From: an uncultured Eubacteriales bacterium
GTDB lineage: Bacteria; Bacillota; Clostridia; TANB77; UBA1234
Length of the DNA: 27,551 nucleotides
Direction: 5' to 3'
Assembly: GCA_964602275.1 (NCBI GenBank)
Contig: CAZRQF010000010.1
Span: 1 to 27,551, forward strand
The position numbers were made by a program, and so were the translations under genes. The stretch's first letter is position 1, and every line of letters starts with the position of its first letter. The notes below the pieces were generated by a model. The model saw only the letters and a program-made list of their open reading frames with translations, made no database searches and was not told the origin of the DNA. Below are positions 780 through 27,056 of the stretch, piece after piece.

Positions 780-3700
780 TTATTGACCTATTAAATCATG
801 AGCAAGCGAATTTATATCTCTATGAGTTGTATTATTTTTTGTATAATCACTTACATATGTTATATGCTCACTATCTGCATATTTTTCGCCAACTTCTCTT
901 GTAACTTTTGAAATTCCTCTTCCATCACTCGATGCGTAAATAGTAGTTTCAATACCTGCATTCTCTATTGCTTCATATTCTTGAATTGGTTCTTTACCAT
1001 CTGAACCTTGTACACCGTCTACTATATGTAATTCTATTTGTGATGTCATGCCAGCTTCTGCTAAGTTTAGTGCTATCTCTGCTGCTGGATATCCACCACT
1101 GCTATACCCAATTAATACAATTTCTTTATCTTTATATTCATCAGATTGTAATAATTCCGAAATATCATCTATAGTTTGATACCACTCATTCCATCTTCCC
1201 ACATCGCCTGTTCCTGTAGGGACAAGCAATGTATCAGCATATGTATTATTTTTTAATGTTTGGTTTGCAGTAGCTTCAATTCCTCCTGTTATTGAACCAG
1301 AACCACCAAAGTATACATATACTTTTTCAGATTCTTCATTTGTTCCTACCTTTTGGTCGTATTTGGTTTTTCCTGTTTTCTTTTGGCTATAATTTTGTAC
1401 TTTTAATGTAAGTGAAACGCTTGTCGTCGTTCCTTTTAGTGACTTCATTTTTGCAGTTATCTTAGCATATCCAATGCCTTTTAAAACAACTGTACCATCA
1501 TTTTGTATTGTTGCAACATTTTCATTGTTACTAATATATTCAATATTTTTTAATGTTTCTTCACTAAGTAAGGTTTCGTCTATTGGGAATTTATATGTTT
1601 TTTCTCCTATGTCTAGTTTTACTGTTGAGTTATTAGTTGTTAATTTTAATGTTTCAGCTTTTACATTAACTTCTTTCGTTACAGTATTTCCCGATGAAGT
1701 TTTTAATGTTATTTCTGCTTTTCCTGCTTTCTTAGCTTCTATCACACCATTATTAGTTACAGTAAGTGTCTCTTTATCTGAGCTTGATATTTCATATTCT
1801 TCTGTTGCGTTTTCTGGTTTTGTTGTTATTATTGCTTGTACTTTTTGCCCTGCAAATATCACATCATTTTTTGTATTTATCTCAATATTCATTTCTGTTA
1901 TAGGAATTATTTGATTTGTAACATTAACTACATATATATTTTCTTTTTCATCTTTTATGATTGTTGTTCCAAGTTCAACACCTATAATTTTATTTTCAGA
2001 AACTATTAAACTCTTACCAGAAATTACTTGTAAGTTTTCTACACCACTTAAAGTTACTTCTTCATCAAGGAAAATGCTCATTTGACTTGATGGTTCTTTT
2101 GTTTTTCTTTCTTTTACTACAATCTCTCTCGTTTCCATTGCTAATCTTGTACCAGTTTTATTATAGTAAGAAACTCTTAATGTATGCTTTCCTAATATGC
2201 TTGGAGTATATGCGATATTATTTACTCCTGCATTTTGATTTATATCTCCAACACCACTTATATTCCATCTTATAAAGCCATTCCCGTTATTTGGCGTTGC
2301 AATAGCACCTAATATTGTTTCTTCATCTAAATAAATTTCATCTGGTATATCAACCTTCAAACTATATTTTGGATTATATTTTATATCTATAGTTTGTGTT
2401 GCTATATTTTTAGTTTCATTAATATATGCTTTAACAGTTATTTTTACTGTTGCATCTTTAGTTTTTGAATTTTCTATAACTTTAGCTTCTGCATTTCCTG
2501 CATTATCAACAGAAATTAATTTTTCATTGCTACTAGTATACTTTATTTTTATATTTTCATTACCATTATGAGTAACCGTAATTTGAGTACTTTCGCCTGG
2601 CAACAAACTTGAAGTATCATACTTAACTTGCATTGAAAAATCGCTATCACATCTGTCACATTTATTAGCCTTTGTAAATTCATGATTTTCTCTTATTTCT
2701 AGTTTTGCATTGCATTTTTGGCACTCTATAGATTTTATATGTTTGTTACTATCACTTGAATTATTATATGTTGTTTTATAATTTTCTGAATCATGCTCAC
2801 AAATATAAGTTCCTTCTTGATAGCCACAACTACATTTACCATTGTTTAAAGTATGTGCTTCTAATTTGAAAAATCCTCGCTTACAAATTTCACAATAGTA
2901 ATACACTTTGTGACATGTTTCATCATATCTAACTTGATGCAAAGTAGGCCTTGGAGAATGTCCATCTAATATTTCAGTTGCACTACATTTCTTTTCTTCA
3001 TTTTTCTCGAATCCGCAATCAAAACATTTACCATTTGAACTGAAAATATGATTTTCAACATGAGTAAATGAACTATTACATGCCATGCAGCGCTCTGTAA
3101 TTTCATGAGTGTTTTCGTCGATACTAATACATTCAACTTTAAATATAGGATGCCCAGCATTAATATTATCTTTACTACACTTTTTAATAAAAGTACATTT
3201 TATACATCTGTTATCACTACCAAATTCATGATTTTCTTCAATCGCCAAATCACATTTTTTACATTTTATAGTATGCTTTGTTTCATCTATCGAAGAATAT
3301 ATATACTCATGTGCACACTCTACCTTATATGAACATACCTTGCATATTTTATTTTTATCAAAGTTATGTGCTTCTGCTCTAGTTGCAGAGCAGTTTTTAC
3401 AATTTAGCAGGTGTGTCTTTGCATTCACTTCTCCGCCACTATATTCAAACACATGATTTCCTTTATATCCACATGTAACGCAAACTTCGCCATTTAGATT
3501 GTGCTTTTCATTTTTAGTGCTACTACATCTTGTACAAGATAAAGTATGAGTTGTTGTAGTTTTTTTGCCTCCACTATATTTATATTCATGTCCAAGTGCT
3601 GTGCCACTTATTTCTCCACACTTTGTACATGTCTTTGGAGATGTACATGTTGCATTTTTCCATGTATGTGTACAATTTCTTTTATATCCACATTTTGTGC

Positions 3701-4898
3701 ATTTATCATTACTGTTGAAACTATGATTTTCTTCATAAGTATTACTACATTTTCTACATTTCAAACTGTGTTTTGTACTATTTACTGATGTGTATACATA
3801 TTCATGATCACATACCGTTTTATATCCACACACTTTGCATATTCCACTTGAATTTAAATTATGATTTTCAGATTTTGTTGCAGAACAATTTTCGCATCTT
3901 AATGTATGCGTATCTTTTCCGTATCCATCATCATCATATACATAATTATGTCCAAGTGCCGTGCCACTTGTTTCTCCACACTTTGTACATGTCTTTGGAG
4001 ATGTACATGTTGCATTTTTCCATGTATGTGTACAATTTCTTTTATATCCACATTTTGTGCATTTATCATTACTGTTGAAACTATGATTTTCTTCATAAGT
4101 ATTACTACATTTTCTACATTTCAAACTGTGTTTTGTACTATTTACTGATGTGTATACATATTCATGATCACATACCGTTTTATATCCACACACTTTGCAT
4201 ATTCCACTTGAATTTAAATTATGATTTTCAGATTTTGTTGCAGAACAATTTTCGCATCTTAATGTATGCGTATCTTTTCCGTATCCATCATCATCATATA
4301 CATAATTATGTCCAAGTGCCGTGCCACTTGTTTCTCCACACTTTGTACATGTCTTTGGAGATGTACATGTTGCATTTTTCCATGTATGAGTACATCCAGC
4401 CTTATAAGCACAAACTTTACATACATTATCCGAATTGAAGTTATGTGTTTCTTTTCTTGTCGCAGTGCAGTTAGCACATTTAAGCAAATGTCTTTGTGCC
4501 TCTGGAGTATCACCCATATACTTAAAACTATGGTCTAACACATCTATTTTTTCGGTAAAGCTAGCTCCACAAATGCATGTATATGTTCGCTCGCCCTCAT
4601 TACTACATGTAGCATTTTTAGTTATTTTGGCTTGATATTTGTGTGGCTCTCTATATCCACATACCGTACAAGTATGCAAATTATTCCAAGTATGTGCACT
4701 CGTTGCCACACTTTGAACTACACTATTACATTTTTTACAAAGCAAAATGGATGTATGTGTAGTGCTTGTAGTATTATATGTAATAGTTATATCAATATTT
4801 CCACAATTATTACATTTCATAGCGGCATATGTACATGCATATTGGCAACACAAAGCCACAAAAACGAGCGTTAGTAACATTATTAATTTTTTTCTCAT
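780..4898 (-). CDS. Secreted 1372-aa multidomain surface protein: signal peptide, Cys/His mini-module array, Ig-like (Big_2-style) repeats, C-terminal alpha/beta-hydrolase-like domain
   Basis: ATG at 4898 lies 9 nt after GGAGG. The signal peptide is MRKKLIMLLTLVFVALCCQYACTYA. Residues ~26-752 carry about 27 CxxC motifs by my count, in repeating modules. Residues ~755-1160 contain Big_2-like strings (KYTSSNEKLISVDNAGNAEA, ISSSDKETLTVTNNGVIEAKKAGKAEITL, YISNNENVATIQNDGTVVLKGIGYAKITA). The last ~180 aa have a GxSxG nucleophile elbow, VLIGYSSGGYPAA (codons near 1092-1109). TAA stop. Confidence 0.85.
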   Translation of the reverse strand: MRKKLIMLLTLVFVALCCQYACTYAAMKCNNCGNIDITITYNTTSTTHTSILLCKKCNSVVQSVATSAHTWNNLHTCTVCGYREPHKYQAKITKNATCSNEGERTYTCICGASFTEKIDVLDHSFKYMGDTPEAQRHLLKCANCTATRKETHNFNSDNVCKVCAYKAGCTHTWKNATCTSPKTCTKCGETSGTALGHNYVYDDDGYGKDTHTLRCENCSATKSENHNLNSSGICKVCGYKTVCDHEYVYTSVNSTKHSLKCRKCSNTYEENHSFNSNDKCTKCGYKRNCTHTWKNATCTSPKTCTKCGETSGTALGHNYVYDDDGYGKDTHTLRCENCSATKSENHNLNSSGICKVCGYKTVCDHEYVYTSVNSTKHSLKCRKCSNTYEENHSFNSNDKCTKCGYKRNCTHTWKNATCTSPKTCTKCGEISGTALGHEYKYSGGKKTTTTHTLSCTRCSSTKNEKHNLNGEVCVTCGYKGNHVFEYSGGEVNAKTHLLNCKNCSATRAEAHNFDKNKICKVCSYKVECAHEYIYSSIDETKHTIKCKKCDLAIEENHEFGSDNRCIKCTFIKKCSKDNINAGHPIFKVECISIDENTHEITERCMACNSSFTHVENHIFSSNGKCFDCGFEKNEEKKCSATEILDGHSPRPTLHQVRYDETCHKVYYYCEICKRGFFKLEAHTLNNGKCSCGYQEGTYICEHDSENYKTTYNNSSDSNKHIKSIECQKCNAKLEIRENHEFTKANKCDRCDSDFSMQVKYDTSSLLPGESTQITVTHNGNENIKIKYTSSNEKLISVDNAGNAEAKVIENSKTKDATVKITVKAYINETKNIATQTIDIKYNPKYSLKVDIPDEIYLDEETILGAIATPNNGNGFIRWNISGVGDINQNAGVNNIAYTPSILGKHTLRVSYYNKTGTRLAMETREIVVKERKTKEPSSQMSIFLDEEVTLSGVENLQVISGKSLIVSENKIIGVELGTTIIKDEKENIYVVNVTNQIIPITEMNIEINTKNDVIFAGQKVQAIITTKPENATEEYEISSSDKETLTVTNNGVIEAKKAGKAEITLKTSSGNTVTKEVNVKAETLKLTTNNSTVKLDIGEKTYKFPIDETLLSEETLKNIEYISNNENVATIQNDGTVVLKGIGYAKITAKMKSLKGTTTSVSLTLKVQNYSQKKTGKTKYDQKVGTNEESEKVYVYFGGSGSITGGIEATANQTLKNNTYADTLLVPTGTGDVGRWNEWYQTIDDISELLQSDEYKDKEIVLIGYSSGGYPAAEIALNLAEAGMTSQIELHIVDGVQGSDGKEPIQEYEAIENAGIETTIYASSDGRGISKVTREVGEKYADSEHITYVSDYTKNNTTHRDINSLAHDLIGQ
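3591..4388 (-). repeat. In-frame 360-bp tandem repeat (about 2.2 copies) inside the 1372-aa gene
   Basis: Every base from 3611 to 4028 equals the base 360 nt downstream, so 3611-4388 is 100% self-identical at period 360. Lines 3661-3960 and 4021-4320 are letter-for-letter identical. Identity breaks at 4389 (a vs t), and at 3600 and 3610 at the other end. The repeat encodes a 120-aa unit, CTHTWKNATCTSPKTCTKCGETSGTALGHNY...KCTKCGYKRN. Confidence 0.95.
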
Positions 4899-4961: not shown

Positions 4962-5921
4962 TTAGTTTTCATATCCCGCTTCATACTTTGAAAGCCATAT
5001 TCCAGTAAGTTCTTTTCCACCATTTTTATAACCCGTATTAGGTGTCGTATCAGTTTCAGCACCTGTATATTCTCCAAAGTAAAACGCTGGATGTTTTATA
5101 TATCCATCTTGTGTATAGTCTGTTGTAAGTTTGCTATATACTACGCTTATACTACCGCTTTCTTCTTTATAAGTATACCTAGGTATCCATACAAAAGCAC
5201 TTCCCTCTTTTGTAACTTTTTTGCCAACTAAACTTTCTTTTGTACTTTTTCTTACTTCATCGTTTGTCATTCCTTCAAGTTCTATATCGTCCACAAGCAT
5301 TACATTTGCCCATTGATTTACCGCTACACTATAATCATACCATTCTTCATCATATTCTGATGTTACCACCCAAGCGTTATAGATATCGATATATTTTACA
5401 GGTAGCATTCCACTTATAACTATTGGCTTGTTTACACCTTTTTCTTCGTCATATTCACCTGTTTGAGCTAATAGTTCGTTATCTAACTCACTTCTTATTA
5501 GTTCTTCTAAAGTATATATCTGTTTGCTTTCTAATAAGATAGCATTTTTAGAAATAACTTCGCCTGTTGAATAATTAACCACATAATCTCTTGTTACATT
5601 TGATAACCCAAGTGAAGATGCCATTTCTTCGGGAGTAACTAAGTAGTACCCATCACCGTAAGTTACGCCGTTAATTTCAATTGCATCAGTAGTAGTTAAT
5701 TTTTTGCCGACAAGTGGATAGATTGTATTATCCAATCTATTTTCCACTTGTCTTTCTTGAATTGCACTACTCACTTCTTTCATTTCATTATATATCTTTG
5801 TGAAATTAGCTTTGTTTATATTGTATTCGTATCCAATAAAAATACTAATACTAGCAAGTATAAGCAGAACTACTATTGTAATAATTAATGTAATTAATGT
5901 AATACCTCTTTTATTTCTCAT
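4962..5921 (-). CDS. Pilin-like protein with a prepilin-type (class III signal) N-terminus; function unknown
   Basis: The N-terminus MRNKRG/ITLITLIITIVVLLILASISI has a short basic leader ending in Gly, followed by a ~22-residue hydrophobic helix, as in type IV pilins and pseudopilins. Position +5 is Thr rather than the usual Glu. ATG at 5921 lies 12 nt after the upstream gene's TAG, and the gap contains GGAGGGA. TAA stop. Confidence 0.6.
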   Translation of the reverse strand: MRNKRGITLITLIITIVVLLILASISIFIGYEYNINKANFTKIYNEMKEVSSAIQERQVENRLDNTIYPLVGKKLTTTDAIEINGVTYGDGYYLVTPEEMASSLGLSNVTRDYVVNYSTGEVISKNAILLESKQIYTLEELIRSELDNELLAQTGEYDEEKGVNKPIVISGMLPVKYIDIYNAWVVTSEYDEEWYDYSVAVNQWANVMLVDDIELEGMTNDEVRKSTKESLVGKKVTKEGSAFVWIPRYTYKEESGSISVVYSKLTTDYTQDGYIKHPAFYFGEYTGAETDTTPNTGYKNGGKELTGIWLSKYEAGYEN

Positions 5922-5933
5922 CTAATGTCCCTC

Positions 5934-8900
5934 CTACTTATTAATAATTGTAACTCTGAAGCTACTATTGCTACTTGCCGTATTGTCAACATTGCTACCA
6001 GTATTTTCACTAGACATCATAACATACGGTGAAGCTGTACTTCCAATGTTAAAGTCCGTTATCGTTAAACCTTTGTAAAGATTTAATCTAGCACCTTTTA
6101 ATATATCAACATATTTCGCATTTGCCATAGATAATGTTGTTCCTGTTGCATTTGCGTTAAACGCTGCAACATATTCATTTTCTATTTTCGAAATGCCATA
6201 TCTTGATAGCTTAGATGTACCTATGCCCTCTATGTTTTGAGGTAATACTGCATCATATGATTTCGCAGTCGTTGCATTTGATAACATTACTGCTGCACCT
6301 ACATCTCTAGCCCTACTCATAAACATGTCGCTTTGTGTACTACTAATTCCATATCTATATTGTAATTTGTTATCTTCTCCCAATTCTACTTTACCAGAAA
6401 GATTTTTTGACAATACATATGCATCGTTTATTGATAAAGCACCTAATGAAGTATTGTCGCTTGTAAATCTTACATTTTTTGATACGCTTTGTGTTGTAGA
6501 AACTTTAACACTTGCCATATAACCAGACTTATCCTTAAATGAAAATGTTACATCTGTTAAATCACTATATACATTAAGTGTATATTTCTTTACATATTCA
6601 TTACTGCTATTTTTAGTCATTTGACTTTCAAATGCTTCTGGCGAAACAAACTTAACATCTCTATTTGCGATAAATGTTACAACTGAATATTTTCTATATA
6701 AAGTTGGTTCTTGCACGCTGTATTCAACCGTTAATGCTTCTGTATTAAATGTGTCTATTGTTTGAGTAACATTACTAGAATATCCATTATCATCTTTAAA
6801 CTCTGCCGTATAAATTCCATTTTTACTAACAACAACATAGAAAGAATATGCATACTCTGCAACTTCTCCTACGGTATTTTTAATTTCTACATATTTAGTT
6901 TTCTTAATAGTTGCATTTAATATGTTTTGTGCTTCATTTTTCGTCAAATCTATATTTTCATTATTTAGTTTTAAGTATTTTAGTGGCGATGTAGATTTAA
7001 CTACAAGTTCAAGTTCAACAGCATCTTTTCCATTTACAGTTGATATTACATTGTCGCTTATAAAAGTAAATCTACCAATCGGAACGATATCTACAGGAAA
7101 TTCATATAAATCTTTTTCATCAATAGTTAAAGTAACTTCTCTTGATTTTACATTAAATATACCATTTGAAACTATACATCTATACATATTTCCATCCATA
7201 TCTGCAGTTGCAATTGGTGTCTTATAACTATCACTCGTTTCTCCTACTATATCTGTCCATTTTTTACCGCCATCAATGCTTGTTTGCCATTTAAATGTAT
7301 ATTTACTTGGCACACCACCAATTACCGTTATTGTAAATGTTGTGCTTTCGCCTATTCTTAATGTCACATTTTGTGGTCCATTTACTATCGGTGCTGTATA
7401 TACTCGCAAATATCCAATATCGTATGTTTTGCCATTAATAACTTGAGTGCTTAAATGTATATCATAGCCCTCTTGATATACAGGTTCTATTGTTCCAGTT
7501 GCAAAATATAACTTATGAGTATTTTTAACATTTGCTTCAATTTGATTAATATTTAAATCACTTATAACATTTGAACTAATATCAATTACATCTTGATATA
7601 TTACATTTTTTCTACCTGCACTTTGAAGTACACCATCATAAAACTCAAGTTTTGATGTAGCTTTCAAACTTATATACGCAATCTTTTCGCCTCTTATTAT
7701 TGGTTTTGTTGTTATAACAACATCATCTGCCTTATTACCTATTGTAACCTTTGCTGTACTGTTATTTAAAATACCAACTTGACCACCTACAATTGTACCG
7801 CCAAATATATTAACATTACCCGTGTTACCATCTAATAAGGCAACACCTGCTCGTGAACCTGTTAATAAATTTTCGCTTTTTATTGTAACTTCGCCAGTTG
7901 TAAATACTCCTATTGCATCACCTTGATTTGTAGCGCTTGTGCTAGTCGCACTAATAGTGCCACCAGATATAGTAGCTGTTGCATTTCCTTTTACTAAAAC
8001 GCCTCTAACTGCTGAAATGTTTCCATTTGCAGTAACATTACCATTTACAAACTCTAATTTTGAATTACCCTCAAGAGTTATAGCACCATGTTCTGCTTCC
8101 ATATAATTTTCCGCAATAATATTTACATTACTTCCATTTACTATAACTTCGCTAGAAGCTTCCCCTCTAACATGAATTGGCTTTGCACCTCTAACTGTAC
8201 CGCCTGTAAATGTTGCTGTTCCCAAATTATCTAAAACATAATTATATATATTTGTAAGCGTTGGCGTACCATTAACTTCTAATGTACCTTTATTTAAAAT
8301 AAGTGTAGTTGAAGGATTTGCCGTTTTCTTTATCGTACCATTGCCACAAATAATAAGTTTTGAAGTAGTAGGAATTTCAATACCTGCATTTTCCGCTAGC
8401 GTAATATAATGACTACCTGTATCTAGCGTTACCGTTTTATTAGTTGGCACTTGTGCAGATTTTTCAGCAGAAACATCTTTTCTTACTACCACAGTTTCTA
8501 AAGTTAGTGCTGCATCAAAAGCTTGTTGCAATGTTTCATAATAATTTTCTTCGCTATTTCTTTTTATCATATAATTACTTGCAATAACTGTAACTTCAAA
8601 TTCTGTGCTTGCTTCATTGTAATTTGTTCCTTGAGAAGCCGTAACAGTTATTTTTACTTTTCCTGCATTCTTTCCAGTTACAATAATTTGATTTTTCGTA
8701 GAGTCAACACTACTAATTGCAATATTTTTATCACTACTTTTAGCAGTAACTGTACCATCCCCGTTATACGAATATGTTACATTTATAGTTTCATTTTCCA
8801 TAACACTTTGATTAGCTGACGATGTTATTGTTATAGTAGCATCTGCTCTTGATATTTCAAATTTTTTCGATGTGCTTCCAGTATAATTTTTTGAAGTACT

Positions 8901-11900
8901 TTTTGCTGTAACTATTAATTTAGCTTCTTTGCTAGCATTTATGTTATTACTATAACTATATTCAAAATCTTCCGCTCCTAATGTCGTATTAGTTCCTTTT
9001 GGTATTGGCACTGTTACCGTTGGTGTTGGTTTCTTTTCTTTTCCATCGTATACAAATTCTTCAATCGTACCTATGGTTGCATTGCTTAAATCATATTTTT
9101 TTATTGTCCAAGGTATTTCTTTTTTTTCCGTAGAACCATCTTTCCATTTGTAATTCTCTGGGTCTTTTAATGATATAGTTATATTTTCTGTGCCTGCATC
9201 TTTTCTCTTATTATTGTCTATTTGCATAGTATTATCATCAACACCTGTAACATTAGCAGTTTGCTCTTCTCCATTATATATGTAATCATCTTTATTTTCT
9301 AATTTCGGCACATCTAGAGTCGCCTTATCAACTGTTGCTGTTACATTTGAACCATCTGTTATATCTACAAATGTATTAGTTGTATAGTTTGTTCTAGTTG
9401 CTATTACCGTTACGCCTATATATTTTCCTACAAGTCCACTTCCTATTGTATAAGTCTTGCTTGTTGCACCATTTATGATTGTTCCGCTTGTTGCGGTGCT
9501 ACTCGTTGAATACCACCATTGATATGTAAGCGTACAATCACTTGGATTTATGGCGGATGTATCCAAACTTAAAGTTTGTCCATATGTATTTGTACCTTTT
9601 ATCGTTACGCTTCCACTAATTTCTGAACTAATAACATTAAATTCAACAGGTGCTGTTGTTGCTCCTTTATAATTTGTAGTTTCTCCAACTACTGCATACA
9701 TATAATATTTTCCTACATTTAGATATGTCGAACTTGTTACATTGCTCCATGGAGTTCCACCACTATTTGAGTTTGTAGTATTGTAATAATATGTTTCTGT
9801 TCCATTTCCTGTATTTCCCGAAATAGTTGGTGTCGATTTTGTTCCTCCATATGTATAGTTACTCATGCCTACTGTTGGGTTAATTGTTGCTTTGCTTACT
9901 GTTGCAGTTTTATTGTTTGTCGCATCTGTTATATCTGTAAATGTTTTTGTTGTATAGTTCGTTCTAGTTGCTGTTACTGTTACGCCTATATATTTTCCTA
10001 CAAGTCCACTTTCTATTGTATAAGTCTTACTTGTTGCACCATTTATATTTGTTCCGCTTGTTGCTGTACTACTTTCTGAATACCACCATTGATATTTTAA
10101 TGTACAATCGCTTGGTTCTATAGCGGATGTATCCAAACTTAAAGTTTGTCCATATGTATTTGTACCTTTTATCGTTACGCTTCCACTAATTTCTGAACTA
10201 ATAACATTAAATTCAACAGGTGCTGTTGTTGCTCCTTTATAATTTGTAGTTTCTCCAACTACTGCATACATATAATATTTTCCTACATTTAGATATGTCG
10301 AACTTGTTACATTGCTCCATGGAGTTCCACCACTATTTGAGTTTGTAGTATTGTAATAATATGTTTCTGTTCCATTTCCTGTATTCCCCGAAATAGTTGG
10401 TTCTGCTTTTGTTCCTCCATATGTATAATCACTCATGCTCACTGTTGGATTAATTGTTGCTTTACTTCCTATTGTAACTGTACATACAGCTGATGCCTCT
10501 GTGTAGTTTTTTGAAGCTCCCGCTGTTACTTTTATCGTTACACTTGTGTTTATTGCAAGCGTACTTAAATTTGATACTGTAACTGTAGTTCCACTTATTC
10601 CCACAGTTGCTACTGTTGTTGTAGTTTGTTCTGCATCAAGTGTTGCTCCACTATGATAAGCAGTTACATTAATCGATGTGCTACTTGTTCCATAAGGCAA
10701 ACTAACCGACATTGGACTTAATGTAATATATCCTGCTGCCTGTTTAACTTTAAATTCAGCTGTTGCCGTTGTTGTTCCTTTGTAGTTAGTTGTTTCCGCA
10801 ACTGTTGCATACATATAATATGTACCTGCATTTAATGATGTTGAACTTGTTACATTGCTCCAAAGAGTTCCACCGCCATTTGAGTTTGTAGTATTGTAAT
10901 AATATGTTACCGTACCATTACCTGAATTTCCTGAAATAGTTGGTGTCGATTTTGTTCCTCCATATGTATAGTCACTCATACTTACTGTTGGATTAATTGT
11001 TGCTTTACTTACCGTTAAATCATACTTTGCTGTTTTTGTTGCATAAACATATTGTGCAGTATCTTCTACCGTTGCAGTTATTGTTGCATTTCCTACGCCA
11101 ACAATTGTTACCTTTCCTGTGCTGCTATCTACTGTCGCCACATTTGCATTTGAAGATGTATATTTTACCGTGCCATCTCCTGTGTTGGTTAGCGGATTTA
11201 CAAAAGCTAAATCTCCATATGCTTTGCTTACTTTTGTTGTTGCATAACTTATGCTTGCTGATATTTGAACACCATAACCGCAAGTATCACATTTTCCGTC
11301 TGAATTACTATCTTTGTGATTTTCTTTATTATAAGTAGTTGCACCACAAACCGTACATACTTTCCAGTGATTTGTTTCATCCATTTTCCAACTAGATGAA
11401 GTATGCCCTAATGCATCACCATATGTATATGTTTCTGTTCCTTTTGCTGTACATCCCTCTCTACTACATCTGTAATAATACACGGCTGCCTCTGTACAAG
11501 TTGCACTACTTTTTAAATAGGTTGATGATGTATCTTTTGTTGTAAAACTATGTCCTACCGCATTCCATATTATAGCTCCACATCTTGTACATGTCTGTGG
11601 TGTTGTACAAGTAGCAGCTGCACCGTTAATATGACCTAACGCTGCAATTGTTTCGCCATCTGTAGCTCCACAAATAGTACATGCTTTTTGCTTATACCCC
11701 TGTTCTTCACAAGTTGGTTCTGTTATAGTTGCATATGAACCGTAATTATGTAAGCATGAGTAACCACAAATTTTACATTTGTGATCATCAAGCCATGTAT
11801 GATTTTCTGTTGAATCAGTTTCTTCTTTCGAACAACTACTACATGTACGCACAGGCGTATGTGTTGTTTCTGTTGTTTCATATGTAGTAGTCCAATTATG

Positions 11901-12896
11901 TTGATGCGGATCTTCATAAGTAAGAATTATTTGTCCATATTCATATTTGCCTTCTGTGCTCGCTACCGTTACTCCATCCGTCGCTCCTCTTACTCCATCA
12001 TATATATAGTCATATCCATTTGAATTCAATGCGCAATATAAATATGCATATGATGGTAGTGTCCTTGCAATCGACCTTGATGTACCAGATGCCGCAACCC
12101 ATGTGTTATATGTAGTTGGGCTACTTGGTATTGAAACTGAATATGTCTGATTTGCATCAAGCCTTGAATTAGCATCGGAATTCAGAGAGTCATACATACC
12201 AATCATTGCTAATGTTCCACTCGCACCTGCCGTACTACCGCTAATATCATAATATCCAACATATATTGGAGCTGATGTAAAATCAGTCTTATAATGTATA
12301 TATGCTCTTGTTACTCCTGCTGGAATACTATCTGTAAATTTAAGTTGCCTTGGTGTTCCGCTATCACTTTTGCTTATACCCGTTGCTGTTATCGTTACTG
12401 TTAAAGCTGTACTTCTTTCGTTTTTTACAATACAAATCTCAGTTTCATCATCAGACTTATCTGATATAGGTGATATGTACCCTTTCTCATATCCACAATA
12501 TGTACATATATCATCTACGAAATTATGATTTTGTATTATTTGATATGCACAATATTTACAATCACCTTGACACTCAGTATCATTCTTTGCCACATACACC
12601 ATACTATGTGGCGAACTACTACTCATTACATATCCACATACACATGTTCTCTTATGCCCAGATGCTCCCAAATTCTCAAAAAATGCTGGATAGTGTCCTT
12701 CTAGTGTAACGGCCGTAACATTACACTTTCCACATGTATAATTTACCTGGTGCGAACTACTCGTAATATCTGAATAAGTTACAACTAAAGGCCTATTACA
12801 AGCACCACATGTTGCAGCCTCCACTCTGCCGCCAAATCCAATTATAATTGTCGCTATTATTAAAATCATGCTAAATAACATTGCTTTATTTTTCAT
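5934..12896 (-). CDS. Giant secreted 2320-aa adhesin-like protein: Cys/His mini-modules, MBG/YDG-like and Ig-like repeats, parallel beta-helix, unassigned C-terminal ~400 aa
   Basis: The ORF track extends to 13055, but the ATG at 12896 (MKNKAMLFSMILIIATIIIGFGGRVEA, a typical signal peptide) lies 7 nt after GGAGGG. Cys modules occupy ~12480-12830 and ~11275-11910. Big_2-like strings include VKYTSSNANVATVDSSTGKVTIVGVGNATITA. MBG/YDG-like units include KATINPTVSMSDYTYGGTK...AGTYYMYATV and EEFVYDGKEKKPTPTVTV...NYTGSTSKKFEI. Glycine/asparagine-rich beta-helix rungs at ~7400-8575 include GNVTANGNISAVRGVLVKGNATATISGGTISA. An Ig-like domain at ~7125-7400 carries the DGNMYRCIVSN motif. TAG stop at 5934-5936. 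Confidence 0.85.
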   Translation of the reverse strand: MKNKAMLFSMILIIATIIIGFGGRVEAATCGACNRPLVVTYSDITSSSHQVNYTCGKCNVTAVTLEGHYPAFFENLGASGHKRTCVCGYVMSSSSPHSMVYVAKNDTECQGDCKYCAYQIIQNHNFVDDICTYCGYEKGYISPISDKSDDETEICIVKNERSTALTVTITATGISKSDSGTPRQLKFTDSIPAGVTRAYIHYKTDFTSAPIYVGYYDISGSTAGASGTLAMIGMYDSLNSDANSRLDANQTYSVSIPSSPTTYNTWVAASGTSRSIARTLPSYAYLYCALNSNGYDYIYDGVRGATDGVTVASTEGKYEYGQIILTYEDPHQHNWTTTYETTETTHTPVRTCSSCSKEETDSTENHTWLDDHKCKICGYSCLHNYGSYATITEPTCEEQGYKQKACTICGATDGETIAALGHINGAAATCTTPQTCTRCGAIIWNAVGHSFTTKDTSSTYLKSSATCTEAAVYYYRCSREGCTAKGTETYTYGDALGHTSSSWKMDETNHWKVCTVCGATTYNKENHKDSNSDGKCDTCGYGVQISASISYATTKVSKAYGDLAFVNPLTNTGDGTVKYTSSNANVATVDSSTGKVTIVGVGNATITATVEDTAQYVYATKTAKYDLTVSKATINPTVSMSDYTYGGTKSTPTISGNSGNGTVTYYYNTTNSNGGGTLWSNVTSSTSLNAGTYYMYATVAETTNYKGTTTATAEFKVKQAAGYITLSPMSVSLPYGTSSTSINVTAYHSGATLDAEQTTTTVATVGISGTTVTVSNLSTLAINTSVTIKVTAGASKNYTEASAVCTVTIGSKATINPTVSMSDYTYGGTKAEPTISGNTGNGTETYYYNTTNSNSGGTPWSNVTSSTYLNVGKYYMYAVVGETTNYKGATTAPVEFNVISSEISGSVTIKGTNTYGQTLSLDTSAIEPSDCTLKYQWWYSESSTATSGTNINGATSKTYTIESGLVGKYIGVTVTATRTNYTTKTFTDITDATNNKTATVSKATINPTVGMSNYTYGGTKSTPTISGNTGNGTETYYYNTTNSNSGGTPWSNVTSSTYLNVGKYYMYAVVGETTNYKGATTAPVEFNVISSEISGSVTIKGTNTYGQTLSLDTSAINPSDCTLTYQWWYSTSSTATSGTIINGATSKTYTIGSGLVGKYIGVTVIATRTNYTTNTFVDITDGSNVTATVDKATLDVPKLENKDDYIYNGEEQTANVTGVDDNTMQIDNNKRKDAGTENITISLKDPENYKWKDGSTEKKEIPWTIKKYDLSNATIGTIEEFVYDGKEKKPTPTVTVPIPKGTNTTLGAEDFEYSYSNNINASKEAKLIVTAKSTSKNYTGSTSKKFEISRADATITITSSANQSVMENETINVTYSYNGDGTVTAKSSDKNIAISSVDSTKNQIIVTGKNAGKVKITVTASQGTNYNEASTEFEVTVIASNYMIKRNSEENYYETLQQAFDAALTLETVVVRKDVSAEKSAQVPTNKTVTLDTGSHYITLAENAGIEIPTTSKLIICGNGTIKKTANPSTTLILNKGTLEVNGTPTLTNIYNYVLDNLGTATFTGGTVRGAKPIHVRGEASSEVIVNGSNVNIIAENYMEAEHGAITLEGNSKLEFVNGNVTANGNISAVRGVLVKGNATATISGGTISATSTSATNQGDAIGVFTTGEVTIKSENLLTGSRAGVALLDGNTGNVNIFGGTIVGGQVGILNNSTAKVTIGNKADDVVITTKPIIRGEKIAYISLKATSKLEFYDGVLQSAGRKNVIYQDVIDISSNVISDLNINQIEANVKNTHKLYFATGTIEPVYQEGYDIHLSTQVINGKTYDIGYLRVYTAPIVNGPQNVTLRIGESTTFTITVIGGVPSKYTFKWQTSIDGGKKWTDIVGETSDSYKTPIATADMDGNMYRCIVSNGIFNVKSREVTLTIDEKDLYEFPVDIVPIGRFTFISDNVISTVNGKDAVELELVVKSTSPLKYLKLNNENIDLTKNEAQNILNATIKKTKYVEIKNTVGEVAEYAYSFYVVVSKNGIYTAEFKDDNGYSSNVTQTIDTFNTEALTVEYSVQEPTLYRKYSVVTFIANRDVKFVSPEAFESQMTKNSSNEYVKKYTLNVYSDLTDVTFSFKDKSGYMASVKVSTTQSVSKNVRFTSDNTSLGALSINDAYVLSKNLSGKVELGEDNKLQYRYGISSTQSDMFMSRARDVGAAVMLSNATTAKSYDAVLPQNIEGIGTSKLSRYGISKIENEYVAAFNANATGTTLSMANAKYVDILKGARLNLYKGLTITDFNIGSTASPYVMMSSENTGSNVDNTASSNSSFRVTIINK
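9324..10463 (-). repeat. In-frame 570-bp tandem duplication (2 copies, 190 aa each) inside the giant gene, with a diverged partial third copy at ~10750-11006
   Basis: The Lys codon that opens KATINPTV recurs at 10461-10463 and 9891-9893, giving a 570-bp period. A 263-bp core (9553-9815 vs 10123-10385) is 100% identical. The flanks of each copy carry scattered substitutions. Confidence 0.95.
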
Positions 12897-13155
12897 CAAA
12901 TTCCCTCCAAATTGGTTTTCCTTTTGTTTAAAATTTTCATAGTCGTCAAGCATTTCTTCTCGTACTTTTTCTTTCCATCGCCTAAAGATGCGACTACCGC
13001 CCGCATGATTGCCACTTACACGCTTCGGCACCGAACTATTATTTACATCCCACATAATCGCATCTCACACCCTTTCCCAATTTGAAATTTTAAAACTTAC
13101 ATTGCTTTTGTCTTTCAAAACATAAGCAATACTATCTACACTTTTTGTCTTATCT
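12897..13155 (-). promoter_or_regulatory. Long (~260 nt) GC-enriched 5' leader of the giant-protein operon; candidate structured cis-regulatory RNA, class not identified
   Basis: This is the distance from the predicted -10 (13162-13167) to the RBS-supported ATG at 12896. Lines 12961-13020 and 13021-13080 are 48% and 47% GC by hand count, against ~27% in a typical coding line here. In the minus-strand RNA, UCGCAUC (12993-12987) can pair either with distal GAUGCGA (13064-13058) or with proximal AUGCG (13006-13002). A further hairpin is AUUGCUU/AAGCAAU (13101-13130). Confidence 0.35.
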
Positions 13156-13500: not shown

Positions 13501-15249
13501 TTACATTTTTATTAAATTATATTCTATTTTCAACTCATCTAATATTGCTTTTTCTCTGTCGCTACATGTAAACATTATTATTTGTTTTTCTTTTGAGATA
13601 TTGTTTAATGTTTGCATTATGTTTTTTAGTCGCTCGTCATCATAATAAGCAAATGCTTCATCTAGTATAATTGGCAAGTTTGATAGTTTGTTTAATATTG
13701 CAAGTCTAAAGCCAAGATATATTTGATCAATAGTTCCTGCACTTAACTTTTCTATTGATGTTATATCTCCAAATTTATTTTCTATTACTATGCCATTTAT
13801 TCCGTTGTACTTTACATTTGTATATTCTCCATTAGTTGTTTGTGCAACACTTTTTTGTATCTCCAAAGTAATCCCTGGAACTATTCTAGACTTTAATTCT
13901 TCATATGACTTTTCAAAAACTTCTAAAGCTAATTTTAAGCTTGCTTCTTTTTCAGTAATTTGATTTTGCTTTTCGTTAAGACTTTCTATTTCTTCTTCTA
14001 GTTCATTTAACTTGTTTACACCATTTTCTAATGTATCTTCTTCTATTTTCAATTTATGAGATTGCAATATATAATCTGTCTTAGTTTTTTCATATCCATC
14101 TATTAAAGTCTTTAGTTCCGTAAGTTTTCTTTCTATTATGCTCTTTTTTATGCCTTTAGTTTCTAGTTGTTGTAATTCTTTATTTTCTTTTTTCTTTAAA
14201 TCTTCTACTACTAAATCAAATTGATTAGTATCGACATTTGGTTGCGTTGCACTCGCTTTTTTAAAATTATTTATTGCAAGTAGAATTATTACAGGCAATA
14301 TTGAAACTAGTATTAAATAATTTTTAAAAATAATAGTCAATATAATTTCTATTATAGCAATCAAAGCCATTATGATATTAACTTTTTTCTTAGCAAGTTT
14401 TTCTTTTTTTTCGTTTTCCATAGCTTGCTTTTCAATAACTTTTTGTTCTGCATCATATATGTTTCGTTTCTCGTGTAAAAGATTTTGGTATTTTTCTTTA
14501 ATAGTGCAAACTTCGTTCATATTATTTATTTCTTTAGTTATTTCATCTAACTTACTTTCAATCTTTTTTATTTCACTTTCTATGATTTCCTGTCTTTCAC
14601 GCTTATGCAAAAGTTGCTCTCTTTGTATCTTTTTTAATGCCAACTCCCTATTTACAATGTTCTTAGGTTTGCTCTGCGTTCTATCTGTCCCCACCTCATC
14701 AAACAATATTTTTTCTAGTTTTTTAGTTACATTTTCATAAGATACATTTTCATCTCCCGATTGAATCATATTGGTTAATTTTTGTATAATATTTTTTTGC
14801 GAATTTATATCTACATCAATGTTCTTTTGTGTTATGAATGCTGTGTTTTCAAAAGTTTCTTCGTCCACCTCAAACTGTTCACTACCTATGATTACTCCTC
14901 TACTTTTATCTTTTGCAAAGTTATTAGTTATATCAACGCCAGTTGCATCAAATATTTTTGTACTGTTTTTATTAAAATCTCTATATACACTATAAACATT
15001 TCCACATGCTTCATACTCTGCTTTTCCACTAAACTCACTTTCTTGCCAAGGCTTATACCTTTCAACCTCAGAAAAAATGTTGCCTGCTTTATTTTTATTA
15101 ATGCCATAAAACATTGCCTTAATGAAACCCATTAATGTAGACTTACCAGATTCGTTTGAACCAACAATTAAATTTAAACCATCTACAAATTCTATATTTT
15201 TATTTTCTAATTTTCCAAACCCATTAACTTGAATATTTTTTAGTTTCAT
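13501..15249 (-). CDS. yhaN: SbcC/Rad50-like AAA ATPase of the YhaN (SbcE) type, with a central transmembrane hairpin
   Basis: The N-terminus MKLKNIQVNGFGKL...LIVGSNESGKSTL contains a Walker A motif. Long Lys/Glu-rich coiled-coil segments follow. The C-terminus has LSAGTIDQIYLGFRLA (signature motif) and PIILDEAFAYYD (Walker B). A hydrophobic hairpin VNIIMALIAIIEIILTIIF...LILVSILPVIILLAI spans aa 290-328. ATG lies 5 nt after AGGGAGG, 11 nt after the upstream stop. Confidence 0.8.
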   Translation of the reverse strand: MKLKNIQVNGFGKLENKNIEFVDGLNLIVGSNESGKSTLMGFIKAMFYGINKNKAGNIFSEVERYKPWQESEFSGKAEYEACGNVYSVYRDFNKNSTKIFDATGVDITNNFAKDKSRGVIIGSEQFEVDEETFENTAFITQKNIDVDINSQKNIIQKLTNMIQSGDENVSYENVTKKLEKILFDEVGTDRTQSKPKNIVNRELALKKIQREQLLHKRERQEIIESEIKKIESKLDEITKEINNMNEVCTIKEKYQNLLHEKRNIYDAEQKVIEKQAMENEKKEKLAKKKVNIIMALIAIIEIILTIIFKNYLILVSILPVIILLAINNFKKASATQPNVDTNQFDLVVEDLKKKENKELQQLETKGIKKSIIERKLTELKTLIDGYEKTKTDYILQSHKLKIEEDTLENGVNKLNELEEEIESLNEKQNQITEKEASLKLALEVFEKSYEELKSRIVPGITLEIQKSVAQTTNGEYTNVKYNGINGIVIENKFGDITSIEKLSAGTIDQIYLGFRLAILNKLSNLPIILDEAFAYYDDERLKNIMQTLNNISKEKQIIMFTCSDREKAILDELKIEYNLIKM

Positions 15250-15260
15250 AAATGCCTCCC

Positions 15261-16295
15261 TTACATGTTTTTATATACATATTCAATTGCATTTAATACA
15301 ATCTTTTCATCTTCTGGATTATCTTGTAATCGCATTAACATATTTTTTGTAAATATTCCTTTAAGTGTATCCTGCTTTGCAATTTCTTCAAGATTATACT
15401 CCAAATGCGTGTTATCGATAATTTCAGTTATATAGTTAGGTAACTCACTAACACTTTCTTTTAATTTTTGAATTGCTACATGTCTTGTACCCGTAAGGAC
15501 TAATCTATATATATCATTTTCCATATGCAAATTATCTATAATTTCTTGAACCGTTTGAAAATCGCTAATATCAATTTCTTTTATAACAAACTGTTGCTCA
15601 TCCATCTTTTTAAATTCAATATTTACTTTTTTGTCTACAACCTCTCCTATAATCAATCCATGCTCAGAAAGTTCGTCAAATCCACCCGCTAATAAACTGC
15701 CAGGATAGATTATATTTGAATCATCAATTTTTGGCATGTGAATATGCCCAAGTGCAACATAATCAAACTTCTGCAAATTTTTAGACTTCATATCATTATA
15801 TTTGTGTGTTACTCCATCTAAATTACCATGTGCAATTAAAATGTTAGTCTTACTCTCATCAACATCAATTTCGGAAACAACATCTCTATCAAATTCATAA
15901 TCATCAAATCCAAAGCCGTATACATTTATGCCTGCTACTTCATACATTCCTACATCACTACCAAAAATATATACATTTTCTGGCCAATCATATACATTGT
16001 ATGGCGAGTTCTTAATTAACGGATCATGATTTCCAGGAGTAATAAACACTTTAATATCTGGTATATCATTTAAGCAAGAAATAACATACTTAATTGTATC
16101 TTCTTCAACATATTTATTTTCAAACAAATCACCTGCAATAAAAACTGCATCTACATGCTCAGCTTTTGCAAGCTCAATACTTCTTTTAAAAACTTGCTTT
16201 TGGCTATTTCTTCTTTTTTTCACAAGCTCTCTATTAGATTTAATAGAAGAAAAAACCATATCAAAATGAACATCAGCAAAATGTATAAATTTCAA
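15261..16295 (-). CDS. yhaO: SbcD/Mre11-like metallophosphoesterase of the YhaO (SbcF) type
   Basis: The calcineurin-like phosphoesterase motifs appear in order: HFADVHFD, IAGDLFE, TPGNHD, IAHGNLDG, LGHIHMP. The start codon is TTG at 16295, 7 nt after GGGAGG. The gene is translationally adjacent to the SbcC-like gene. Confidence 0.85.
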   Translation of the reverse strand: MKFIHFADVHFDMVFSSIKSNRELVKKRRNSQKQVFKRSIELAKAEHVDAVFIAGDLFENKYVEEDTIKYVISCLNDIPDIKVFITPGNHDPLIKNSPYNVYDWPENVYIFGSDVGMYEVAGINVYGFGFDDYEFDRDVVSEIDVDESKTNILIAHGNLDGVTHKYNDMKSKNLQKFDYVALGHIHMPKIDDSNIIYPGSLLAGGFDELSEHGLIIGEVVDKKVNIEFKKMDEQQFVIKEIDISDFQTVQEIIDNLHMENDIYRLVLTGTRHVAIQKLKESVSELPNYITEIIDNTHLEYNLEEIAKQDTLKGIFTKNMLMRLQDNPEDEKIVLNAIEYVYKNM

Positions 16296-16327
16296 TTTGA
16301 AACCTCCCTATAAAAAAATATATATAA

Positions 16328-16356
16328 ATTATAAATCTAAGCAAAAATACTTTCAA
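16328..16356 (-). promoter_or_regulatory. Sigma-A-type promoter of the yhaO-yhaN operon
   Basis: The minus strand reads TTGAAA (16356-16351), a 17-nt spacer, then TATAAT (16333-16328). Confidence 0.6.
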
Positions 16357-16445
16357 GCGAACACGCAAATATATTTTACATCCGGCAAAGTAGCCTCACA
16401 AAAACATAGCAAAATCTTTGGTATAGTAGATATGCAAAAATGCGA

Positions 16446-16470
16446 TAAAAAAATCCGACTGTTGTCGGAT
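16446..16470 (-). terminator. Rho-independent terminator immediately after the coupling-protein gene
   Basis: Stem ATCCGAC (16453-16459) / GTCGGAT (16464-16470) with a 4-nt loop. A 7-T run follows on the minus strand (A-run 16446-16452). The hairpin starts right after the TAA at 16471-16473. Confidence 0.85.
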
Positions 16471-18513: not shown

Positions 18514-18556
18514 TCATGGTTCCTCCTTTGTAATTTGTTTAAATAAGAAAAGTTAA

Positions 18557-18730
18557 TTATTCTCCTACTTCTACTTCTTCTCTTGCTTTTGCTTGTTCTA
18601 ACGCTTCTTTTGCATCGTAATTGTTGTCAACTGTTGGAACATGATCTTTGCCATATTCACGAGATTTTCCTTTAGTAGGAGTGAACCTTGATTTACTATC
18701 ACTTGTTCCTAATCCCATGTTAATTCTCAT
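18557..18730 (-). CDS. Small hydrophilic protein, 57 aa (not in the supplied ORF track, below its size cutoff)
   Basis: My own translation of the minus strand gives MRINMGLGTSDSKSRFTPTKGKSREYGKDHVPTVDNNYDAKEALEQAKAREEVEVGE, followed by TAA. ATG at 18730 lies 9 nt after AAAGGGG. The ORF exactly fills the gap between the upstream ORF and the T4CP gene. Confidence 0.5.
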   Translation of the reverse strand: MRINMGLGTSDSKSRFTPTKGKSREYGKDHVPTVDNNYDAKEALEQAKAREEVEVGE

Positions 18731-18756
18731 CGCTTAAAACCCCTTTCAAAATTTAA

Positions 18757-19266
18757 CTAATCTCTTACCTCTAATGCTATATACGATTTGTTTGGCAACA
18801 TTTTTATTTTTGCCTTAACTTCATTTGCTTCGCTATCATAATAAAGTACAGGCTTTACTTCGTCACCAGCTTCTGGATCTATTATTGAAATCGGGCGTCT
18901 AAAATTAGGAGTATATTTTATATCTGTATATTCAGTAGCTTCTGTGCTATACAACTTTTTATAAGTTACAAAATCTGCTTTCTAGCCTACTGAAAGTTGG
19001 CCTGTTTCAAATGTTGCAGAATTTAATAATGCCTTACCATTGCCAACAGTCAAAAGCACTAAATCTTTTTTTGCATTTTCTGCTTCTCCATCGTTAAAAT
19101 AAAAAGTCTTTTTGATGCCTTCCGCTTCTTGCTTTACGGAACAATCAAGCTTTTGTAATGTGTACACCGCTTCACTATTCTCATCCGCTTTACTAATTAA
19201 AAAGGCTAATGTCTTCATATCATTCGGATCTAGTACTGTAAAATTTGAATTTTCTAATTCTCCCAT
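18757..19266 (-). pseudogene. 170-codon ORF of unknown function interrupted by one in-frame TAG (18982-18984); either a nonsense pseudogene or a 94-aa product with a silent tail
   Basis: Track ORFs 18982..19311 and 18757..18954 are in the same frame (19311, 18981 and 18954 are congruent mod 3). The junction reads ...GQLSVG-TAG-KADFVTYKKLYSTEA.... The downstream piece starts at a TTG with no RBS. The upstream piece has a good start at 19266 (AAAGGAG, 7 nt, then ATG; MGELENSNF...). The ATG at 19311 would lie at or before the predicted transcription start. Confidence 0.55.
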
Positions 19267-26436: not shown

Positions 26437-26519
26437 TTTCATACCTCCTATGTCTTTATAGCTTACCACAATTGTGTGAAAATTAAGTGAATTTATTAGC
26501 ATTTTTTATCATGTTTCAA

Positions 26520-26548
26520 TTGACGGGTCTGTAAAATCATGGTATACT
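26520..26548 (+). promoter_or_regulatory. Strong sigma-A-type promoter of the 129-aa gene
   Basis: TTGACG (26520-26525), a 17-nt spacer, then TATACT (26543-26548). TGG precedes the -10, giving an extended -10 TG. Confidence 0.6.
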
Positions 26549-26613
26549 TTTTATGTTTAATGATTTACCATTGGGTTGTAGTTATTACTTACAATTGTTA
26601 AGGAGGGGACTTA

Positions 26614-27003: not shown

Positions 27004-27011
27004 TTTGAAAG

Positions 27012-27050
27012 AAAAAATGTGTATCTTATTGTTTTAAGATACACATTTTT
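27012..27050. terminator. Bidirectional rho-independent terminator between convergent genes
   Basis: A perfect 12-bp stem pairs ATGTGTATCTTA (27017-27028) with TAAGATACACAT (27035-27046) around a 6-nt loop. An A-run lies upstream and a T-run downstream. Confidence 0.85.
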
Positions 27051-27056
27051 ATTTAC

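Follow-up and report, generated by a model that had tools for sequence, protein, structure and literature searches.

What is already known of the protein fold considered here comes from one protein, the IgA protease of Thomasclavelia ramosa (IgAse, or ThomasA; UniProt Q9AES2), in which it was noticed in 2025 by predictions and small-angle X-ray scattering (SAXS). Two regions of IgAse are named ZBD1 and ZBD2 (PMC12237041), or CTD2 and CTD4, 'metal-associated periscope domains' (PMC12415215). AlphaFold3 models of ZBD1 and ZBD2, with a predicted local distance difference test score (pLDDT) of 85-87, show up-and-down sheets of three strands that are linked through putative zinc sites, which consist of two His and two Cys or, in one case, of three Cys and one His; the model of ZBD1 (129 residues) is about 110 Angstroms long, and its subdomain I distantly resembles the TFIIS zinc-binding domain (PMC12237041). 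Both regions are dispensable for catalysis, disulfides were neither seen nor predicted among the 24 Cys of IgAse, and dithiothreitol (DTT) improves its monodispersity (PMC12237041). By SAXS, isolated CTD2 fits a fully extended rod, and environmental zinc was raised as a possible regulator (PMC12415215). In both papers the regions were read as a new, putatively zinc-binding rod ('periscope') fold; a further study lists the same regions as flexible beta-sheet domains only (PMC12402451). Here we analysed a 27,551-nt stretch of DNA (the window; contig CAZRQF010000010.1) of about 30% G+C from an uncultured Eubacteriales bacterium, a low-GC gut Firmicute, in which two genes, A and B, encode proteins with arrays of small Cys/His modules. 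By sequence comparison, these modules are homologous to ZBD1/ZBD2 (CTD2/CTD4) of IgAse. What is added here are arrays of ~29 predicted sites, and membership in a family of thousands of protein clusters with varied fusion partners; in the literature on this wider family we found no broader description beyond three papers on the T. ramosa IgA protease.

Gene A (780..4898), an open reading frame (ORF) whose translation is 1372 aa long, lies on the minus strand, as do gene B and all parts of both genes described below. Its product comprises, in this order, a signal peptide, a Cys/His knuckle array, an Ig-like (Big_2) region and a C-terminal alpha/beta-hydrolase-like domain. The predicted Sec signal peptide (4824..4898; aa 1-25, MRKKLIMLLTLVFVALCCQYACTYA), as read from the sequence, has a basic n-region, a hydrophobic core and an A-x-A-like end, and a canonical lipobox was not seen in it. 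The array (2643..4823; aa 26-752) contains 73 Cys and 42 His; CxxC occurs in it 27 times and CxC twice (108/110 and 689/691), which makes 115 Cys and His for 29 knuckles, or 3.97 per knuckle; Cys is entirely absent from the other 620 aa C-terminal to aa 752. Chance does not produce this density: 5000 residue shuffles of aa 26-752 yielded 7.2 +/- 2.4 CxxC with a maximum of 18, as compared with 27 in the real array, and shuffles of the whole gene A protein yielded 4.1 +/- 1.9. An earlier annotation of the window (the sequence-only reading) had proposed an array of extracellular CxxC/His modules at 2643-4823, coordinates that coincide exactly with aa 26-752. Its estimate of about 27 CxxC in the 1372-aa protein was recounted as 27, far above the shuffles, and the two consensus strings that it quoted were both found verbatim in the translations.

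Part of the gene A array is a recent duplication of a whole 120-aa super-module. A 360-bp tandem repeat inside the gene (3588-4394; 2.2 copies, 99% matches) encodes this super-module, which consists of one type-1 unit and two type-2 modules (see below). Copy 1 (4035..4394; aa 169-288) shows this composition in full; copy 2 (3675..4034; aa 289-408) has the same protein sequence as copy 1, and a partial, diverged copy 3 (3456..3674; aa 409-481) has one type-1 unit and one type-2 module. In a 35-sequence alignment of super-module segments, C66 and C69 are invariant, and conservation is 90% or more for H29 and C50. The sequence-only reading had named cysteines that vary among homologues as a result that would speak against it, and the invariance of C66 and C69 is the opposite outcome.

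The arrays are built from two types of unit. Type 1 has a period of 26 aa and the pattern H-x-W-x4-C-x5-C-x2-C-G-x8-G, with H-[TDS]-W-x-x-A-T-C-T-x-P-K-T-C-x-x-C-G-x-T-E-G-x-A-L-G as the consensus across homologues. The unit had earlier been taken to be ~30 aa long; because it begins at His, the His of 'ALGH' opens the next unit. Arrays always open with H-x-W and often end without a trailing His, and in terminal units a His can stand in for the middle Cys; from these array starts and ends and the terminal Cys-to-His swaps, the ligand set of type 1 would be formed by the leading His together with the middle Cys and both Cys of the CxxC. Type 2 was present as the sequence-only reading had quoted it, yet not as a single module but as two fused units: its first half reads H-x-Y-x-Y-x(7-9)-H-x3-CxxC (His2Cys2), its second half H-x-[FL]-x(5-6)-CxxC-G-Y-K-x2-C (His-Cys3; here the fourth ligand trails). 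In the homologues P0020 and P0031 the second half bears the middle Cys of type 1 instead, which shows types 1 and 2 to be variants of one theme.

We therefore propose, as a working scheme, that the basic unit would be one knuckle with four ligands and one metal each. The first ligand would be the leading His in an H-x-aromatic strand, two more would be the Cys pair of the CxxC turn, and the remaining one would be a Cys or His between the leading His and the CxxC or, if this is missing, a Cys a few residues after the CxxC. Type 1 would then be one such unit (Cys3His, 26 aa), and type 2 a His2Cys2 unit followed by a His-Cys3 unit. In the 120-aa super-module, 13 of 13 Cys and seven of seven His fit five sites of four ligands; the proposed metal sites of copy 1 are {H171, C178, C184, C187}, {H197, H211, C215, C218}, {H226, C234, C237, C243}, {H245, H257, C261, C264} and {H272, C280, C283, C289}. 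Across 260 family proteins with 6961 knuckles there are 4.5 Cys and His per knuckle (median 4.28) and about 30 residues per knuckle, and His makes up 5.9% of residues inside the arrays versus 1.4% outside, an enrichment of about four-fold. Cys and His swap at the third ligand position across knuckles. A trailing Cys is found in 43% of the knuckles that lack a middle ligand versus 11% of those that have one (36% versus < 1% in a smaller set). These counts support the four-per-knuckle scheme, short of proof.

Profile A1, made from 35 super-module segments, links these modules to IgAse. Among PDB sequences it matched 9qa6_A, 'IgA protease' (E 0.021), at chain residues 853-966 and 1073-1133, and these matches fall in ZBD1 (879-1008) and ZBD2 (1101-1171) of the T. 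ramosa enzyme. ZBD1 reads as a long type-1 unit (ATCTTAGNSAYYTCDGC...IPAPGH) and then type-2 units (GHTAGTEWKSDDTNHWHEC...), and the lone Cys3His site of ZBD2 matches the unit composed of His, CxxC and a trailing Cys. In HHalign, a profile restricted to type-2 units of gene A and of the homologues P0269 and P0002 was matched to a ZBD2-like profile with 93.7% probability (E 1.9e-7), and the His and Cys columns of the gene A clade and the ZBD2-like profile were in register. IgAse fragments in turn match 50 family proteins at E<1e-3 with a Z of 1e6, the best-domain E being as low as 2e-13; P0059, P0086 and P0090, already found by the gene A query, are among them. Likewise, the gene B unit GHTSSSWKMDETNHWKVCTVCG shows 60% identity over 25 aa to ZBD1 (BLASTP, E 1e-6 for that single comparison). 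The sequence-only reading had known of no structural or functional characterisation of such modules, a statement overtaken by the homology to the IgAse regions and their 2025 description as a putative zinc-binding rod fold. As for its proviso that the modules might belong to a characterised family, a homologue has indeed been described, by AlphaFold models and SAXS alone, and no function beyond that of a spacer has been given to it.

Structure prediction gave a compatible picture. An AlphaFold2 (AF2) model of gene A aa 169-292 computed with A1 (pLDDT 86.9; predicted template modelling score, pTM, 0.52) contains short strands only. These form three-stranded units (31-38, 42-47, 53-57; 79-84, 88-93, 99-103), i.e. 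the three-stranded sheets seen in the models of the IgAse ZBDs, with the knuckle Cys at strand ends and the leading His beside strand starts. The combination of a pTM of 0.52 with a high pLDDT is consistent with what would be expected of an elongated chain. A Foldseek search of this model against the PDB returned nothing better than E 0.33, and the weak matches include TFIIS-like and RPA12-like zinc-ribbon proteins, a result like that in the IgAse papers. The sequence-only reading had likened the CxxC spacing to that of zinc ribbons, in which two successive CxxC motifs would be paired on one metal. Such a pairing is probably wrong in detail, because ligand counts and the IgAse models combine each CxxC with a His and a further His or Cys and so give one metal per knuckle, and on these grounds it was set aside.

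When both proteins and individual modules were scanned against Pfam-A and NCBIfam, no model for the knuckle modules turned up, in agreement with the earlier failure to assign them to a named family. In Pfam, single modules reached at most sub-threshold similarity to zinc-ribbon, rubredoxin and HypA models; as the scores illustrate (Zn_ribbon_8, 16.5 bits versus a cut-off of 34.4; Zn_Ribbon_TF, 11.5 versus 29), a profile match above threshold, as classical zinc ribbons would give, was not obtained. The best hit of a PDB sequence search with a single super-module was an unrelated African swine fever virus protein at E 6.8; IgAse came up in the profile search alone.

The family to which the arrays belong is large. 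With the gene A array as query, 236 proteins were found, and profile A1, searched against 1.84 billion cluster representatives, matched 13,158 of them at E<=1e-3, 4,463 at E<=1e-10 and 528 at E<=1e-30, where the lowest-scoring part of the list may hold unrelated Cys-rich proteins. Some of the proteins in this list are as long as 6,716 aa, with as many as 59 matched stretches, and CxxC counts go up to 145. The statement in the sequence-only reading that such modules occur in other Firmicutes surface proteins proved sound: 140 of 269 sampled proteins contain full-length type-1 units, 741 in all, and pure 26-aa type-1 tandem arrays are common. Its view of the modules as extracellular and heavily stacked agrees with the export signals and with the extracellular fusion partners. 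An N-terminal hydrophobic signal is present in 226 of the 264 Met-starting homologues in a sample of 267 sequences, 91 of which have a lipobox-like motif. The fusion partners include polysaccharide deacetylases, SLH, cohesin, dockerin, CW_binding_2, BspA-type leucine-rich repeats, CotH, NPCBM, DUF6273 and LPXTG, as well as trypsin-like and GDSL hydrolases and the extracellular parts of Ser/Thr kinases. The array adjoins a terminus in 174 of the 267 proteins, beginning <=75 aa from the N-terminal signal in 133 and ending <=140 aa from a C-terminal anchor in 41. DUF6273 (PF19789) and knuckle modules, which co-occur in P0007, P0036, P0037 and P0096, appear to be a recurrent pairing, and the T. 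ramosa IgA protease, too, has DUF6273 as its N-terminal domain (PMC12402451).

Full-length orthologues of gene A differ in array length: 12 (P0002), 15 (P0269) and 27 (gene A) CxxC are joined to a C-terminal part that is constant at 625-649 aa, so that array length appears to change in evolution and little else, in a comparison of distant orthologues (41-44% identity). Taken with the 360-bp repeat, these CxxC counts suggest stalk-length variation of the periscope type. Among GTDB species representatives, no relative of gene A was found.

Our preferred explanation, to which we assign a probability of roughly 0.65, is that the array is a zinc-clamped, extended spacer of variable length that carries the Ig-like domains and the alpha/beta-hydrolase. 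The arrays would consist of tiny beta-sheet modules in a chain, and a tetrahedral metal site of structural kind, most likely of zinc, would close each module. Because the ligands of one site would come from neighbouring strands or sheets, the metals would clamp the small sheets end to end, and the resulting rod would be extended with almost no hydrophobic core. Gene A would have about 29 such sites over 727 residues and form a rod of the order of 60 nm, if one extrapolates from the ZBD1 model (129 residues, ~110 Angstroms). The rod would serve as a spacer that holds the Ig-like domains and the hydrolase away from the N-terminal end, and the gain or loss of modules would alter its length.

Several points weigh against this explanation. 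The direct match of A1 to IgAse is borderline (E 0.021), and homology rests on profile-profile and transitive evidence. The three IgAse studies (PMC12237041, PMC12415215, PMC12402451) contain no metal analysis, experimental atomic model or distribution survey of the ZBDs. The ligand counts were obtained with simple regular-expression rules on mutually related repeats, so that their Fisher p-value is no true probability, and the ligand assignment proposed for gene A draws on sequence counts and the published IgAse models. A leading H-x-aromatic is not recognisable in 1953 of 6499 unique knuckle contexts (about 30%), and some units (GYKGNH...; the last unit, CDRCDSD) seem to show just three obvious ligands. 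Finally, no cell anchor was recognised in gene A by sequence and Pfam (LPXTG, SLH and canonical lipobox are all missing), which makes the picture of a cell-surface stalk weaker for gene A than for many homologues.

In other organisms, extracellular repeats rich in Cys as a rule carry disulfide bonds, and the proteins considered here are exported and metal has not been measured in the family; all this would suit beads knotted by disulfides after export, in EGF-like or Cys-knot style and free of metal. However, each 26-aa type-1 unit has one near-invariant His and three Cys, one of which would stay free if they paired within the unit; EGF-like repeats differ from it in that their modules have Cys in even numbers, paired in disulfides, and need no His. 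The four-fold enrichment of His in the arrays, the interchange of His and Cys at the third ligand position, and the trailing Cys that appears when this position is empty all argue in the same direction, as do the hosts, which are gut anaerobes, and IgAse itself, with no disulfide observed or predicted among its 24 Cys and better behaviour in DTT (PMC12237041). The sequence-only reading had left the choice between Zn-stabilised and disulfide-knotted beads of a rigid stalk; the ligand counts and the IgAse homology favour the former, and we regard disulfides as very unlikely. Metal might also be bound for purposes other than structure, i.e. the arrays could be a surface metal store or scavenger, or hold iron or a redox metal as in rubredoxin-like centres. 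In favour of this are the very high site density (about 29 in gene A, up to 145 CxxC in one protein), the gene for a heavy-metal P-type ATPase in the same window (20358-22556), the possible regulation by environmental zinc raised in PMC12415215 and the weak sub-threshold Pfam similarity to rubredoxin-type knuckles. Yet fully coordinated mixed Cys/His sites with four ligands are typical of structural zinc, and were read likewise in PMC12237041 and PMC12415215; rubredoxin sites are Cys4, and both rubredoxin and zinc-ribbon Pfam models score far below threshold. Moreover, the ATPase gene lies about 15 kb off with unrelated genes between, and is kept in genomes in which no gene A relative was found. 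Overall, a non-structural metal seems distinctly unlikely to us.

The modules themselves could be functional, as adhesin or ligand-binding repeats rather than a passive spacer. Members such as P0010 consist of nearly nothing but modules plus an LPXTG anchor, genes for a type IV secretion system (T4SS) coupling protein and a pilin-like protein stand beside genes A and B, mobile elements often encode adhesins, and periscope-type domains can have second functions (PMC12415215). Against this, the domains of IgAse are dispensable for catalysis, the array adjoins a terminus in most of the sampled proteins (174/267), and the positions other than the ligands are short and polar and include few conserved surface residues. 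Such a role, which we consider unlikely, would be compatible with a zinc-clamped spacer and does not exclude it. It is highly improbable that the modules are bacterial members of the eukaryotic C1 (phorbol-ester/diacylglycerol-binding) family, even though the super-module reaches 31.8 bits with PF00130 (C1_1; cut-off 26.5) and P0003 reaches 48.6 bits, and PF00130 is precomputed on > 20 homologues. The aligned positions are 1-19 of 53 on P0003 and P0022 and 1-36 on the gene A super-module. No single PF00130 stretch of P0003 or P0022 passes alone, and the score sums many partial H-x-F...CxxC matches. The motif H-x-aromatic...C-x2-C-G of the modules resembles the first third of C1; the remainder is missing, including its second half (H-x2-C-x7-C), and the full motif H-x12-C-x2-C-x13/14-C-x2-C-x4-H-x2-C-x7-C does not occur in one ~50-aa unit. 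With partial matches accumulating in this way, C1 identity was rejected at the sequence level, and PF00130 on bacterial knuckle arrays is, to judge by these alignments, a systematic false annotation.

C-terminal to the array, gene A continues with the Cys-free Ig-like region (1449..2642; aa 753-1150), which has three Big_2 matches (Pfam PF02368; 5.1e-10, strongest over aa 1007-1070). The alpha/beta-hydrolase-like domain (783..1370; aa 1177-1372) contains a GYSSG nucleophile elbow. It is matched weakly by Hydrolase_4 and Abhydrolase_6 (Pfam, E about 0.07) and matches 2xmz among PDB sequences at E 0.021. A single-sequence AF2 model of low confidence (pLDDT 66.8) gave 42 PDB matches at E<=1e-3 in Foldseek, mostly esterases and thioesterases, and the domain is probably an enzymatic cargo.

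Gene B (5934..12896) encodes 2320 aa when counted from Met54 (MKNKAMLF...) of a listed ORF that extends to 13055. The start at Met54 yields a typical signal peptide and corresponds to the protein length in the sequence-only reading. The signal peptide is followed by two knuckle arrays, Ig-like repeats and a long beta-rich C-terminal part. Array 1 (12486..12809; aa 83-190) and array 2 (11271..11900; aa 386-595) lie where the earlier positions had indicated, and array 2 includes long type-1 variants (ATCxxxGxxxxxCxxC...ALGH) in addition to the unit GHTSSSWKMDETNHWKVCTVCG. Gene B contains 10 CxxC, as compared with 0.5 +/- 0.7 in shuffles. Between 9346 and 11016 it carries 570-nt direct repeats, with a 272-nt core present three times at 86-95% identity and a 300-nt stretch present twice at 91%; the 570-nt repeats encode Ig-like units of about 190 aa with SCAB-Ig and Big_2 Pfam matches.

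Between genes A and B lies an ORF of 319 aa (4962-5921, minus strand) with a prepilin-type N-terminal methylation motif, MRNKRGITLITLIITIVVL, and the homologue P0036 combines a prepilin methylation motif with knuckle modules and DUF6273; a link of the surface proteins to a pilus-like system is possible. Upstream of gene B (13501-18513, minus strand) are an SbcCD-like pair (an AAA_23 ATPase with a calcineurin-like phosphoesterase) and a T4SS coupling protein of the VirD4/TraG type; a DnaJ-like protein gene is also among the neighbours of genes A and B. The SbcCD-like pair and the coupling protein are hints of an integrated conjugative element; a plasmid match for the window was not found in PLSDB by DNA or protein. 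In another contig, that of P0001 (locus L001), a gene A orthologue (10001-13141) is followed by a very large Big_2 protein (13570-19083; 1837 aa) in a chromosomal setting with IF-2, RbfA and TruB nearby. Because this locus has the same order in a chromosomal setting, the pairing of genes A and B may be conserved and not tied to T4SS genes. Further along the window, the P-type ATPase, which has an HMA domain, is 68-74% identical to ATPases of metagenome-assembled genomes of uncultured gut Clostridia and of Clostridium sp. CAG:343/CAG:492. An ORF of 618 aa (22899-24755, plus strand) has no Pfam match, and the region 24805-27551 encodes a Cthe_2159-type carbohydrate-binding beta-helix protein and a chagasin-family (I42) peptidase inhibitor.

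Cys/His sites of the zinc-finger kind are regarded as intracellular chemistry, and in gut anaerobes they appear to be what extracellular rods are chiefly built from. Disulfides, the usual stabiliser of extracellular proteins, are not favoured there because the environment of gut anaerobes is reducing. Of more interest than gene A alone are the size of the family and the missing Pfam-A and NCBIfam model, and a curated profile would annotate much surface-protein sequence now called 'hypothetical'. For experiments, the gene A super-module offers a compact, repeat-verified construct of 120 aa with five predicted sites and all Cys and His accounted for. One might go further and take the modules for the visible part of an extracellular 'zinc-finger' superfamily of very large size in anaerobic Bacillota, in which the integrity and length of many surface stalks depend on zinc and reduced thiols; we hold this extension to be unlikely. 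If it were true, host zinc withholding (e.g. by calprotectin) or oxidants would directly make an entire class of surface enzymes and adhesins collapse or be shed, and the arrays could double as a cell-surface zinc reservoir.

Compared with known systems, the modules share with classical zinc ribbons and rubredoxin-like knuckles (the TFIIS C-terminal domain, RPA12/C11 and eIF2-beta) the CxxC at beta-hairpin tips and the three-stranded sheets. In a zinc ribbon, however, two CxxC share one zinc, whereas each CxxC of the modules seems to hold a separate metal, with His or Cys as the further ligands; the modules are also extracellular and arranged in tandem arrays, and all matches to the corresponding hidden Markov models are below threshold. 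The CXXC-rich variant surface proteins of Giardia are likewise extracellular, dense in CXXC and made by an anaerobic gut organism, with reported zinc binding; they are eukaryotic and are not known to be related in sequence to the modules.

A further comparison is with periscope proteins such as SasG and Aap with their G5-E repeats (PMC9704523), rod-like surface stalks of small single-layer beta-sheet repeats that, like the modules, have little hydrophobic core, and in which, as may also be the case for gene A, length changes via near-identical DNA repeats. The G5-E repeats are unrelated in fold and sequence and need no internal metal, and the zinc of Aap mediates dimerisation via surface His and acidic sites (PMC12415215). 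Copy number varies between strains in periscope proteins, and between distant orthologues (41-44% identity) in the gene A family. Closest of all are ZBD1 and ZBD2 of IgAse, which have the same unit types, the same predicted His2Cys2 and Cys3His sites and the same small three-stranded sheets, and which likewise occupy a spacer position in an exported Firmicutes protein. In IgAse, predicted sites number only 3 + 2, an Ig-like domain lies between the two groups, and a C-terminal sortase anchor is adjacent, whereas gene A would have about 29 in one uninterrupted N-terminal array, with a duplicated 120-aa super-module and no recognisable anchor. Pure 26-aa type-1 tandem arrays occur in the family and not in IgAse. 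The cargo differs as well, being an M64 protease in IgAse, and Ig-like domains with an alpha/beta-hydrolase in gene A.

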